A stretch of 31,917 nucleotides of DNA from a virus (lineage: Duplodnaviria; Heunggongvirae; Uroviricota; Caudoviricetes; Herelleviridae): IMG/VR virus record IMGVR_UViG_2595698877_000001, positions 132,381 through 164,297 of that record; one strand, written 5' to 3'. Positions 20,302 to 31,917 of the stretch are shown one piece after another. A program made the translations under genes and the position numbers. The notes under the pieces were generated by a model. That model did no database searches. It had not been told where the DNA came from and saw only the letters and a list, made by a program, of their open reading frames with translations. The first letter of the stretch is position 1. The number at the start of each line of letters is the position of its first letter.

Positions 20302-20316
20302 AATATTCTGACAATT
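20302..20316. promoter_or_regulatory. CodY-box-like 15-mer (single copy)
   Basis: AATATTCTGACAATT; 13/15 match to AATTTTCWGAAAATT; identical to copies at 29855, 30102 and 30510 (reverse). Confidence 0.55.
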
Positions 20317-28851: not shown

Positions 28852-29049
28852 ATGAATGGTTTCGTATTAGTTAATAGAGAAGGATTAAGAGGTTTATATG
28901 TCAGATACAATGAAGACATAGAAGATATAGATATAAGGATAACTATAGGGTGTGTTGATAACGTATCAAGTGAGTTTACAATGAGCATAGAAGACTTTAT
29001 ATTCATATACGGTCATTTAGTAGAACTAGGTCATTTAGTAGAGGTATAA
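28852..29049 (+). CDS. hypothetical protein
   Basis: 65 aa ORF; RBS AAAGGAGCTG. Confidence 0.75.
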   Translation: MNGFVLVNREGLRGLYVRYNEDIEDIDIRITIGCVDNVSSEFTMSIEDFIFIYGHLVELGHLVEV

Positions 29050-29099
29050 ACCTATTATATATAATAACAACTTAAAATAAACAGACAAAAATAATTAAT

Positions 29100-29200
29100 A
29101 GAAAAAGTTAAAGCCCCAGCTTTTGTATTTGATGTCCTGCTCACACTAGAGTATATAACTTGCATCTATAAGAGGAGGCGGGGCGCGGGGTTTAATAGAG
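29100..29200 (-). ncRNA. candidate C-rich small RNA
   Basis: Minus-strand promoter upstream; 5'/3' end pairing; CCUCCUCUU anti-SD; ends in CUUUUUC. Confidence 0.3.
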
Positions 29201-29206
29201 TCATAT

Positions 29207-29235
29207 ATTATAAGGTTGAAATATAAGCAACACAA
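29207..29235 (-). promoter_or_regulatory. candidate minus-strand sigma-A promoter
   Basis: TTGTGT-17-TATAAT read on the minus strand. Confidence 0.4.
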
Positions 29236-29265
29236 AAAGACTAGTAGCCCGCTGGATTACTAGTC
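29234..29265 (-). terminator. minus-strand intrinsic terminator
   Basis: GACTAGTAGCC-CGCT-GG(A)TTACTAGTC hairpin with AAAAA on its left side (a U-tract on the minus strand). Confidence 0.65.
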
Positions 29266-29784
29266 ATCGTTACATCTATCCTTATGACAATCTTTATATC
29301 ATGGTGTATAAGTTTTTTGACAATTGAAAACATGAAGGTTATATCCTAATAGTAAGATGTGTAAGTTGTCAGAATATTATACACAATTCCGCATGTTGTC
29401 GGAAATGATATAAAGATGTCTGTAAACAGCATACAATAGGACAAGTTGTAAAAGCAAGCGGAAATAAAAGAAAAATTGTTTTGAATTATCGAATAATAGG
29501 ACAAGTTATAGTTATCAGATAACTTTATTATATGTAATAAGAGAATGATTCTAATGTGCAGAATAGTCTGACAATTAGGACAGTTCGTGCTGCTGCAATA
29601 GACAGAATAGTCAGATAACTATAATGATTATAATTTATATAATATTCTGATAATTCTAAATACTTTACAATAGTTGTCTAAATGTTCAGATAATTTAGAA
29701 TATATAATTAACTTGACAAATGGTAATGTTTATGATTGGTGGCAGTTGTACGAATAGTCTGACAATTCTGAATACATAATTAAC

Positions 29785-29813
29785 TTGACATATATAATAG
29801 AGTGTGGTATATA
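29785..29813 (+). promoter_or_regulatory. sigma-A promoter with no adjacent ORF
   Basis: TTGACA-17-TATATA with TG. Confidence 0.65.
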
Positions 29814-30028
29814 TAGGTAGCTGTTTGAATAGTGTTAATATTCAAATTGTTTATAATATTCTGACAATTTATAAATCAGGTTAAAATACAGTGAGCCGGG
29901 AAGCCTTGATATGACTAGGTTTAAGAGTCCATTTCCTCCGTATGAGCTTCTAGCAGTCTATCTAATACACTTGTGAGGGGTATGGCTTAGAAACGCTGTG
30001 AGAGGCTGTGAGAGGCTTTAAAAAAGAT

Positions 30029-30057
30029 TTGACAAATTCATAGATATATGTTATATA
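30029..30057 (+). promoter_or_regulatory. sigma-A promoter
   Basis: TTGACA-17-TATATA with TG. Confidence 0.65.
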
Positions 30058-30153
30058 CGTATACGCTTGTACATGTGTTATATAGAGGAAATAGTTATTA
30101 CAATATTCTGACAATTCTGAATAGTTAAACTTTAATTAATCGGTAATATATTG

Positions 30154-30182
30154 TTGACTAAAAGTATATAATGTATTAATCT
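30154..30182 (+). promoter_or_regulatory. sigma-A-type early promoter
   Basis: TTGACT-17-TAATCT. Confidence 0.72.
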
Positions 30183-30212
30183 AAGGTTAATCAAATAAAG
30201 GGAGCTGTTAAT

Positions 30213-30470
30213 ATGTTCAAACTAAATAAATTATTCAAAAAGCTTGTGGAACTTGGTGTGAGTCCTTATATGGTTGATGATGAAATTCACGTCGAGGGGT
30301 GCAACTGCAATATGACAATTAAAATGGAAATCGGAAGGTTTGCCCTAGATGCTTGGATGCAGGAAAAATACTTAGATGAACACGGCGCTGCAAAACGTAT
30401 TCTACATACTGATGTTGTTAGTCGTGGAGATAAGAAAATTATAGAGTTTGTAAGTGATATGTGCTTCTAA
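30213..30470 (+). CDS. hypothetical protein
   Basis: 85 aa ORF; RBS AAGGGAGCTG. Confidence 0.8.
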   Translation: MFKLNKLFKKLVELGVSPYMVDDEIHVEGCNCNMTIKMEIGRFALDAWMQEKYLDEHGAAKRILHTDVVSRGDKKIIEFVSDMCF

Positions 30471-30499
30471 AAGGTCGGCTCAATGGAGCGGGCTTTTTT
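30471..30499 (+). terminator. intrinsic terminator
   Basis: GGTCGGCTC-AATG-GAGCGGGCT followed by TTTTT. Confidence 0.75.
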
Positions 30500-30561
30500 C
30501 ACTTGTCTTAATTGTCAGAATATTTAGAATAGTTTTATTTTAATTAATTGGAATAAAGGGC

Positions 30562-30590
30562 TTGTCAACTGCGTATAATAGTATTAAGAT
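30562..30590 (+). promoter_or_regulatory. sigma-A-type promoter (upstream member of a tandem pair)
   Basis: TTGTCA-17-TAAGAT. Confidence 0.6.
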
Positions 30591-30631
30591 AAGGGTAGTT
30601 AAACGAGAGGCAAACAACTTGAAAATAGTTG

Positions 30632-30660
30632 TTGACTTTTAGTAAAGTACATATTATAAT
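30632..30660 (+). promoter_or_regulatory. sigma-A-type early promoter
   Basis: TTGACT-17-TATAAT. Confidence 0.85.
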
Positions 30661-30693
30661 AAAATTAACTTAAGAAAAGGGAGATGTTTTATA

Positions 30694-31560
30694 ATGACAG
30701 TTGTAAACGAATATAAAAATAATATCGAGGTTATCACGGAGCTTGCTACTAATAAGGAGCTAAACAATGCAATTCGACTAACTGAATATAAAGGCTTCCT
30801 AGTTACTTTAGTGAATGCATACGAGGACGTACAAAGCGGTTACTCAATCTTATGCGCTGAAGGTGATATCACGAACGCGGTTAATGAGTTAGTAAATAGC
30901 GGTCTTGTAAAAGTTAATACAGCAGAGGAAAAATATACAATCACATTCAAACATGCAAACGGTTTGGAATGCACTCGTATTGTGATAGCGACTAGTAAAG
31001 AGCATGCAACTAAACAAGTTAATGAATCATACAATCATAACGGAATCATTTCTATTGAAAAGGAGGAAAAACAAATGTTCGAATTAAACCAAGAGGTAAA
31101 CGTAGAGATTTTCAAAGGTGCTAAATTCAGTGGTAGAATCGTAGACGTTAACGCTTATCAAACGGTTATCTGGGTAGAACGTGCAGAAGATTGCGAGTGG
31201 TTTATGGTTGATGTAATGGAAGACAAAGTTGTATTCGTAGACGAAAAGGAAGAAGAGCGCGCACCAGAGGGACTAAAGACTCTTAAGGAGCTTAAAGAGG
31301 CTATTGCAGACGAATTAAAGGGTCAATGGTATGAAGAGATTGAAAGCGTAAAGGTTGCTGTATATAATAGCGATGAGGACGGAGCAGAGGTATACGACTG
31401 TGAGGTACAAATTTTACTTGACAACGGCGAGTCCATATATCCTACATTTGGCACGTTCTATAATGAAAAGGACGCGCTTGCATACGCTCGTGATATGCGT
31501 GTCAAGTTAAATCGTTCGACATATACTATCACTGATAAGGTTTGGGTATACTCTTGCTAG
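30694..31560 (+). CDS. multidomain hypothetical protein with an internal in-frame start
   Basis: 288 aa ORF; RBS AAAGGGAG; internal AAAGGAGG with ATG at 31075. Confidence 0.8.
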   Translation: MTVVNEYKNNIEVITELATNKELNNAIRLTEYKGFLVTLVNAYEDVQSGYSILCAEGDITNAVNELVNSGLVKVNTAEEKYTITFKHANGLECTRIVIATSKEHATKQVNESYNHNGIISIEKEEKQMFELNQEVNVEIFKGAKFSGRIVDVNAYQTVIWVERAEDCEWFMVDVMEDKVVFVDEKEEERAPEGLKTLKELKEAIADELKGQWYEEIESVKVAVYNSDEDGAEVYDCEVQILLDNGESIYPTFGTFYNEKDALAYARDMRVKLNRSTYTITDKVWVYSC

Positions 31561-31613
31561 TATGCCCAGCTAGTACCATATATTAAAACTACTATATAAA
31601 GGAGCTGGTATAT

Positions 31614-31781
31614 ATGAAACGTATTCTAAAGGCTATTACAGGGCTATATAATCACTTGGTATGTAAGGAGGCTAATACTATTGATAATAAGGTAGAGCGC
31701 ATGCAGGAGGGTGTGAGAGCCTATAATACTACTATTGATAATATCATTCATAATAATGCTAGACTGTTAGAAGTAAAATGA
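31614..31781 (+). CDS. 55 aa hypothetical protein (absent from ORF track)
   Basis: RBS AAAGGAGCTG. Confidence 0.65.
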   Translation: MKRILKAITGLYNHLVCKEANTIDNKVERMQEGVRAYNTTIDNIIHNNARLLEVK

Positions 31782-31917
31782 ATATCTGCACTCATGAATA
31801 TACCAGTTTGTCAAGTATTATTTTGTCAACCCTTTTCTATATTCGATTTCATAGATATAACCCACCCCGTGCTTTATAGACCATATGTTCGGGGATGGTA
31901 CCTACCTCCCGCCTACC

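Follow-up and report, generated by a model that had tools for sequence, protein, structure and literature searches.

Phage operators for host regulators and the terminal array

CodY is a winged-helix regulator and the main sensor of GTP as well as of branched-chain amino acids in low-GC Gram-positive bacteria. Phages of the phi29 family carry boxes for host Spo0A as well as parS sites on their genomes, the Bacillus thuringiensis tectivirus GIL01 is regulated by LexA, and tox of corynephage beta is regulated by DtxR. The subject of this report is an array of CodY-box-like sites in a 31,917-nucleotide stretch of phage DNA (the window), which makes up the right-hand 31.9 kb of a virus record of 164,297 bp that has direct terminal repeats (IMGVR_UViG_2595698877_000001, positions 132,381 to 164,297). 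The description of these sites as CodY-box-like is well supported by their sequence, by comparison with structures of CodY bound to DNA and by the recurrence of the box in unrelated phages of CodY-bearing hosts, and host CodY is predicted to be the most likely binder of the array (probability about 0.6).

The array resembles the phi29 system in that a virulent Bacillus phage would carry operators of a host global regulator near early promoters, leaving host physiology in control without a phage repressor; it differs in having far more sites, placed in the terminal repeat. The likeness to GIL01 and corynephage beta is that phage operators are proposed to be bound by a transcription factor of the host, but those temperate phages have single operators at single promoters, whereas the array is multi-copy in a lytic-type myophage, so that titration becomes possible. 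Iteron arrays of phage and plasmid origins, and the site arrays of terminase small subunits such as lambda cosB and SPP1 pac, also consist of a short site repeated, largely in a single orientation, in non-coding sequence close to the end of a genome; in contrast, the boxes of the array are palindromic and irregularly spaced, occur also at internal promoters and in unrelated phages, and have no cognate initiator gene beside them. The operators on Firmicute chromosomes (the AATTTTCWGAAAATT box and the 24-nt sites of hutP, ureA and braB of Bacillus subtilis; PMC10415144, PMC4608796) share with the array a 7-1-7 pseudo-palindrome, the invariant positions and, at part of the sites, partners offset by 9 bp, and the two to four mismatches of the array sites equal or better those of proven sites. 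Chromosomal CodY regions have one to a few sites per regulated promoter, whereas the array has 10-15 sites in 1.2 kb of gene-free DNA at both genome ends, its consensus is tighter and asymmetric, and its binding by CodY is predicted from sequence. When about 8.4 million papers and preprints were searched for CodY in combination with phage terms, no report of such arrays or of phages using CodY was returned.

The closest named relatives of the phage are BigBertha, B4, Troll and others, with 85-89% nucleotide identity across the aligned parts; these are Bequatrovirus myophages of B. thuringiensis and Bacillus cereus (Herelleviridae, Bastillevirinae). The phage is a Bequatrovirus-like myophage, and from these relatives its host is inferred to belong to the B. 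cereus group. The genome begins and ends with the same 2,800 bases, which makes the end of the window the right copy of a terminal repeat (Table 1), and the homologous stretch of BigBertha carries a terminal repeat annotation. The array (29311-30533) lies in the gene-free outer part of this repeat. Sizeable open reading frames (ORFs) in the whole repeat are limited to three, starting at 30213, 30694 and 31614. Because the repeat is exact, a second, identical array is present at the opposite end of the genome.

Sites of the array and their fit to CodY recognition

The repeated unit of the array is a 15-bp 7-1-7 pseudo-palindrome with the consensus AATATTCTGACAATT, present in nine strong copies and about five weaker ones at irregular spacings of 9, 35, 40, 43, 72 and 102 bp. 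At least nine of the ten positions of AATNNTCNGANNATT are kept in nine sites, and five weaker ones are at 29311, 29510, 29553, 29597 and 30519. The original prediction of at least 11 related quasi-palindromic 15-mers, including four exact copies, is borne out at the positions that it gave, with the qualification that 29510 and 29606, at four mismatches to the CodY consensus, are weak sites. A CodY box is defined as a 15-bp pseudo-palindrome matching AATTTTCWGAAAATT, typically with no more than about five mismatches, and the sites of the array fall within this definition; the predicted range of two to four mismatches is correct for the counted sites except the weak partner box at 29597, which has five.

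Table 1. Coordinates of boxes and other features in the window, with mismatches of each box to the phage and CodY consensus sequences.
Feature	Position	Strand	Mismatches to AATATTCTGACAATT	Mismatches to AATTTTCWGAAAATT	Remarks
Weak box AGTTTTTTGACAATT	29311..29325	+	3	3	
Box AATATTCTGACAACT	29364..29378	-	1	3	Conserved in five Bequatroviruses
Perfect 7-1-7 palindrome AGTTATCAGATAACT (AGTTATC-A-GATAACT), weak box	29510..29524	.		4	
Overlapping pair, weak partner 29553 and strong box 29562, offset 9 bp	29553..29576	+	1 (29562)	4 (29553), 3 (29562)	Invariant in five Bequatroviruses
Overlapping pair 29597 and 29606, offset 9 bp, both weak	29597..29620	+	3 (29597, minus strand)	5 (29597), 4 (29606)	
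Box AATATTCTGATAATT	29641..29655	+	1	2	Flipped variant at same place in Phrodo
Box AATGTTCAGATAATT	29681..29695	+	3	2	-35-like TTGACA 17 nt downstream (29713)
Box AATAGTCTGACAATT	29753..29767	+	1	3	29785 promoter 17 nt downstream; 72-bp tandem duplication with 29681 unit
Exact box	29855..29869	+	0	2	First three bases finish a TATAAT hexamer; about 35 nt downstream of predicted start of 29785 promoter
Exact box and following 9-mer core	30102..30125	+	0	2	24-mer 4 mismatches from ideal double operator; relatives have AATATTCTGAAAATT, 1 mismatch to CodY
Exact box overlapping partner at 30519	30510..30533	-	0	2 (30510), 4 (30519)	-35-like TTGTCA at 30562
Exact box, the only one of the window outside the terminal repeat	20302..20316	+	0		Intergenic, early region; box and context conserved in Troll
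Promoter-like TTGACA-17-TATATA, preceded by TGN	29785..29813	+			Read from sequence; conserved in five Bequatroviruses
Promoter-like TTGACA-17-TATATA	30029..30057	+			Read from sequence; conserved
2,800-bp direct terminal repeat, right copy	29118..31917	.			Exact prefix/suffix identity of genome; second copy at genome 1-2800
Conserved left-terminal sequence, then G-rich element	29118..29195	+			Kept across left ends of Bequatro-, Bastille-, Wph-, Nituna- and Agatevirus
Non-coding block of about 150 nt	29880..30028	+			Sequence-conserved in Bequatro-, Bastille- and Wphvirus; between box and 30029 promoter, into which it runs

The enrichment of the box is far above chance, and chance is excluded by several controls. 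The window has 14 matches at three or fewer mismatches, compared with 3.6 +/- 2.0 in shuffled sequences (maximum 9). Sites within two mismatches of the CodY consensus number 11 in the 161.5 kb of unique genome (1.6 +/- 1.3 expected) and five in the first 1.5 kb of the repeat (0.05 expected). Exact AATNNTCNGANNATT occurs nine times genome-wide (0.49 expected), seven of them within the array, and when one mismatch to the phage 15-mer is allowed, 14 of the 15 matches in the genome are inside the two repeat copies and the reversed pattern has none. Under the setting that yields 14 matches in the genome studied here, the control genomes of T4, T5, Campylobacter phage NCTC12673, Staphylococcus phage K and Listeria phage A511 have one or two each, and in this comparison the reversed pattern has zero.

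To our knowledge, CodY is the sole regulator with a site of this kind and a 9-bp offset. A matrix built from 96 sites in nine phages is near-invariant at positions 1-3, 6, 7, 9, 10 and 13-15, and the substitutions between orthologous boxes of Bequatroviruses are at positions 4, 5, 8 and 11. Crystal structures of the CodY proteins of Staphylococcus aureus and Enterococcus faecalis on a 24-nt double site indicate that recognition is mainly through DNA shape: base-specific hydrogen bonds are made solely at the T6/C7 step and the terminal T, the wing is placed in the A/T minor groove of positions 1-3, and T4 and T5 are contacted at their phosphates only (PMC10415144). The phage box therefore retains the bases that CodY reads (A/T at positions 1-3 and 13-15, T6-C7 and G9-A10) and varies at those that it does not (positions 4, 5, 11 and 12 may vary in a CodY box). 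The C at position 11 of the phage box is found in a proven motif, braB motif 2 of B. subtilis (TATTATCTGACAATT; PMC4608796), and the exact phage 15-mer is listed as the CodY box of thrC in Streptococcus salivarius (PMC5966866). When full-length box 15-mers were searched in about 8.4 million papers and preprints, they occurred in CodY-regulon papers only. The CodY of the B. cereus group has been described (PMC4877379, PMC5633148), with a reported affinity of roughly 250 nM for targets in B. cereus (PMC4877379).

Seven of the sites had been predicted to have a second core 9 bp away, as in strong CodY operators. This offset is typical of CodY and corresponds to two boxes with a 6-nt overlap, which form a cooperative operator of 24 nt. 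Recognisable pairs of 15-mers are present at 29553/29562, 29597/29606 and 30510/30519, the partners being clear in the first and last of these while the middle pair consists of two weak boxes; the sites at 29641, 29681, 29753 and 30102 are followed by a 9-mer core only, and their 24-mers are four to six mismatches from the ideal. Among 93 sites in nine phages, with a partner half-box counted when at least four of six informative positions match, 34% have one upstream and 24% downstream, compared with 4.8% of background 9-mers. Most sites are without a good partner, and the double-box arrangement applies to about a quarter to a third of them. The T found conserved at six bases upstream of the box is consistent with position 3 of a partner on that side, and in all three pairs the partner is on the AATATT side. 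AATATT is itself palindromic and could therefore act as a half-site common to two overlapping dimers, which might explain the asymmetry of the box; the optimised site that was crystallised with CodY has AATTTT in its place. Three more pairs of CodY-like 15-mers at the 9-bp offset (two to three mismatches each) are outside the window, at genome positions 27650 (inside an ORF), 31725 (in a strand-switch intergenic region) and 48572 (at the very start of an ORF).

A perfect 24-nt match to the double CodY operator is found elsewhere in the genome (108513-108536, outside the window), adjoining the -35 hexamer of a TTGACA-17-TATAAT promoter upstream of the gene for the single-strand DNA-binding protein (ssb). 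Troll and AvesoBmore also have it, whereas Bastillevirus and Wphvirus do not. In 185,579 species genomes of bacteria and archaea, the ideal 24-mer occurs in only 14 stretches and in no Bacillus, a rarity which argues that the ssb-promoter site is neither due to chance nor copied from host DNA.

Four strong boxes are located upstream of -35-like hexamers, at a distance of either 17 nt (hexamers at 29713 and 29785) or 37 nt (30154 and 30562), and because each pair arose by duplication these placements represent only two independent events. The prediction that sites lie just upstream of promoters was upheld in part: the promoter at 29785 has a good -10 hexamer, that at 30154 has a poor one, and that at 30562 scores 9/12. 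About seven sites (29311-29650) have no convincing promoter nearby, and in a simple promoter scan across genera the distance from box to promoter was inconsistent. The box at 29855 is placed in the same manner as the sites of the CodY roadblock in B. subtilis, which are just downstream of a promoter according to the discussion in PMC4877379.

Recurrence of the box and surroundings of the array

The array is conserved in three genera of Bastillevirinae. The first 1.2-1.5 kb of the terminal repeat is gene-free and contains 9-15 copies of the box in Troll, AvesoBmore and Phrodo (Bequatrovirus), Anthony and Evoli (Bastillevirus), and SalinJah, Belinda and SBP8a (Wphvirus). The whole genomes of five relatives were scanned, and the box was restricted to the repeat except for one internal copy. 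An internal box of Wphvirus was considered as a homologue of the 20302 box and rejected; it belongs to a terminator hairpin. Among Bequatroviruses, the boxes are fixed in places where some of the flanking sequences become unalignable. Boxes are few in Bastillevirinae that are more distant: phiNIT1 of B. subtilis has boxes at positions 86, 868 and 5022 of its 5,103-bp repeat, and in phiAGATE of Bacillus pumilus a single box is located about 80 bp from one end of the repeat, with one or two more at about 230 bp from the opposite end. The exact 15-mer is identical in phiNIT1 and the phage studied here despite the distance between them.

The IMG/VR database was also scanned for the exact 15-mer, and contigs outside Bastillevirinae with many copies were found. 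A 38.5-kb fragment of an uncultured phage (G001) has 32 exact matches to AATWKTCWGAMWATT, all within its first 12 kb, and a CodY-seeded matrix gives 94 sites over 13 kb, among them runs in which three boxes overlap at steps of 9 bp. The complete 123-kb genome of another uncultured phage (G003) has boxes in a block of small genes of about 12 kb that spans the ends of the record; its endolysin has an amidase domain and three CWB2 repeats, which points to a Gram-positive host. Many early genes of G001 and G003 are separated by boxes. Siphophages of the genus Sextaecvirus that infect Mammaliicoccus and Staphylococcus have five or six exact boxes in about 8 kb of their 92-kb genomes and none in the other 84 kb. 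Matrix refinement seeded with the symmetric CodY consensus and limited to non-coding or early regions (a whole-genome version was set aside because it drifted to coding-sequence bias) arrives for each of the three groups at AATTGTCAGAATATT, the reverse complement of the phage 15-mer.

A BLASTP comparison of all ORFs of at least 35 residues found no protein common to these box regions and the phage studied here. The same consensus in unrelated phages whose box regions have no detected protein in common is best explained by a factor with a constant DNA-binding surface that is present in Bacillus, in Staphylococcaceae and probably in other Firmicutes, and the occurrence of similar clusters in unrelated phages of Gram-positive hosts suggests that the phage DNA probably binds host CodY. 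The DUF7448 protein, the single small protein common to G001 and the phage studied here (50% identity), was considered as a common binder and rejected because it is absent from G003 and encoded outside the terminal repeat. Extreme densities of boxes were observed in small-gene regions of the uncultured large phages IMGVR_UViG_3300009686_000008 and IMGVR_UViG_3300028797_000005, where the boxes often form inverted pairs around a GC-rich spacer (GCCGGCC-like) and also occur in 9-bp tandem runs.

The terminal repeat has other conserved elements. Both of its ends (29118-29195 and 31850-31917) have sequences common to five genera of Bastillevirinae: the left end consists of a conserved start, CTAGA, TTGCATCT and then a G-rich run, and the right end has a C-rich run and GGTACC. 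These sequences are likely the signals for generation of the termini, and the one at 29118-29195, which is distinct from the boxes, is the likelier signal for terminus recognition. The conserved block at 29880-30028 was evaluated as a small RNA, which was ruled out (single-sequence fold z-score 0.27, consensus fold -5.5 kcal/mol), and an Rfam scan of 28900-31917 had zero matches at E values up to 1; having no ORF, Rfam match or RNA-structure signal, the block is probably an element that acts at the DNA level. The left part of the array also has three copies of another short repeat, AGGACA(A)GTT (29436-29448, 29496-29508 and 29575-29586), one of them directly after the 29562 box.

The gene at 30213-30470 (85 amino acids, phrog_19624) has a weak promoter and a terminator of its own. 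It is an insertion specific to this phage and is flanked by a duplication of the box and about 40 nt of promoter-upstream context (30102-30143 and 30510-30551), the 15-mer being inverted in the second copy. The ORF at 30694-31560 encodes 288 amino acids, of which an N-terminal part of 127 is fused in frame to a 161-residue phrog_2236 protein that stands alone in relatives (162-203 amino acids). The 288-residue and the 161-residue forms may both be made, as suggested by a ribosome-binding site and ATG inside the ORF at 31075. The 161-residue part is very acidic (pI 4.3), and the predicted fold of the phrog_2236 protein (pLDDT 89), a Tudor/SH3-like barrel with an alpha/beta domain, has zero matches in the PDB at E values up to 0.001.

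Candidate binders and roles of the array

If host CodY is the binder, the array would be a set of CodY-type operators at which a partner half-box 9 bp away would allow two dimers to bind cooperatively. The ten to fifteen sites in gene-free DNA at both genome ends would form a high-affinity CodY platform among early promoters, which would tie transcription of the terminal repeat to the nutritional state of the host, and the accumulation of phage DNA would draw active CodY off chromosomal operators. Given CodY as the binder, regulation of early promoters and titration are rated as roughly equal in probability, and both may apply. The gene-free placement of the sites, their duplication at both ends and their predicted strength, greater than that of most chromosomal sites, fit a CodY sink at least as well as promoter control. 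It may be proposed, as a tentative possibility, that several unrelated lineages of lytic Firmicute phages (Bastillevirinae, Sextaecvirus and at least two uncultured groups) each acquired, independently of the others, near-optimal CodY operators in arrays that act as protein-free DNA sponges, the replication of which would strip active CodY from the chromosome and release a starvation-type programme of biosynthesis and uptake that benefits the phage. The further suggestion that the array is connected to the ParM/FtsK module and to a decision between lysis and entrapment in the spore found no support.

Several observations weigh against host CodY as the binder or against its simplest roles. Phages K, A511, SPO1 and CP-51 have no array, and neither does the repeat of Mater, though the hosts of all five bear CodY; SPO1 and CP-51 have no boxes at all, and Mater has none in its repeat. 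The consensus AATTGTC-A-GAATATT that is common to all three phage lineages is asymmetric, unlike the symmetric CodY consensus, and its orientation is biased, features for which a dedicated protein could account more simply. A small, fast-evolving regulator common to these phages can be overlooked by BLASTP. Of the 13 promoters in the terminal repeat of phiNIT1, one has a box, which indicates that the box is not a general operator of early promoters, and the phiNIT1 and phiAGATE boxes located about 70-230 bp from the repeat ends hint at a role linked to the termini. Since well-fed cells are those in which CodY is active, it looks maladaptive for early genes simply to be repressed at that time.

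The dedicated protein would be a dimeric DNA-binding protein encoded by the phage, an early or middle regulator with a specificity resembling or mimicking that of CodY, for which the boxes would be operators that shut off or time the terminal-repeat promoters. It would account for the tight consensus that the boxes have of their own (a mean of less than 1.2 mismatches, with A4, T8 and C11 preferred), the 80:16 bias of orientation, the near-restriction of the box to the terminal repeat in six genomes, and the presence of arrays in particular lineages rather than in phages of CodY hosts universally. It is nevertheless rather unlikely, since Sextaecvirus, G001 and G003 have the same asymmetric consensus and no detectable box-region protein in common with the phage studied here, and the constancy of the 15-mer from phiNIT1 to the phage studied here is unusual for a phage protein coevolving with its site. 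The phage encodes no CodY-like helix-turn-helix (HTH): a search for homologues of the CodY GAF and HTH_CodY domains found none, the proteins of the terminal repeat belong to PHROGs of unknown function with no Pfam family and no DNA-binding family or fold, and the first gene after the array is predicted to encode an acidic protein (pI 4.3) with a Tudor/SH3-like barrel and an alpha/beta domain, without HTH. The absence of a CodY homologue and of an HTH in the first gene weakens the case for a binder made by the phage.

The original prediction had named a phage replication or terminase protein as the alternative binder, with the boxes serving transactions of the terminal-repeat DNA as replication-origin iterons or as sites for packaging or generation of the termini. 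The location of the array in gene-free DNA inside the terminal repeat and the single orientation of most boxes are consistent with such a role, and so are phiNIT1 and phiAGATE, in which one end of the repeat has a box at about 70-90 bp and the opposite end has one at 80-230 bp, beside G-rich and C-rich terminal elements. However, the ends are marked by a separate and better conserved terminal sequence, and the distance from box to end ranges from 72 to more than 330 bp between genera rather than being fixed as for terminase sites. The sites are palindromic and irregularly spaced, not the regular, helically phased direct repeats of iterons; the same boxes are present at promoters far from the ends (ssb and 20302) and between early genes in G001 and G003; and no initiator gene is adjacent. 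This alternative is improbable. It is highly improbable that the boxes have no dedicated binder and are A/T-rich phased upstream elements (UP-like or curved DNA) or degenerate look-alikes of -35 and -10 hexamers that were duplicated locally. The box does include CTGACA, which matches the -35 hexamer at five of six positions, three boxes finish a TATAAT or TACAAT hexamer, and two box-promoter pairs arose by duplication, but C7 and G9 are invariant amid A/T-rich DNA, the site is palindromic, the boxes persist as their flanks diverge, the motif recurs in unrelated phages, and no consistent -10 hexamer is found 17 bp after the box.

If host CodY binds these arrays, a lytic phage would read or rewrite the nutritional state of its host by means of DNA alone. 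Binding by CodY would also explain why the terminal repeats in a large, frequently isolated group of B. cereus-group phages have a conserved kilobase free of genes, and the recurrence of the box in staphylococcal and uncultured phages would indicate that the strategy is a general one.

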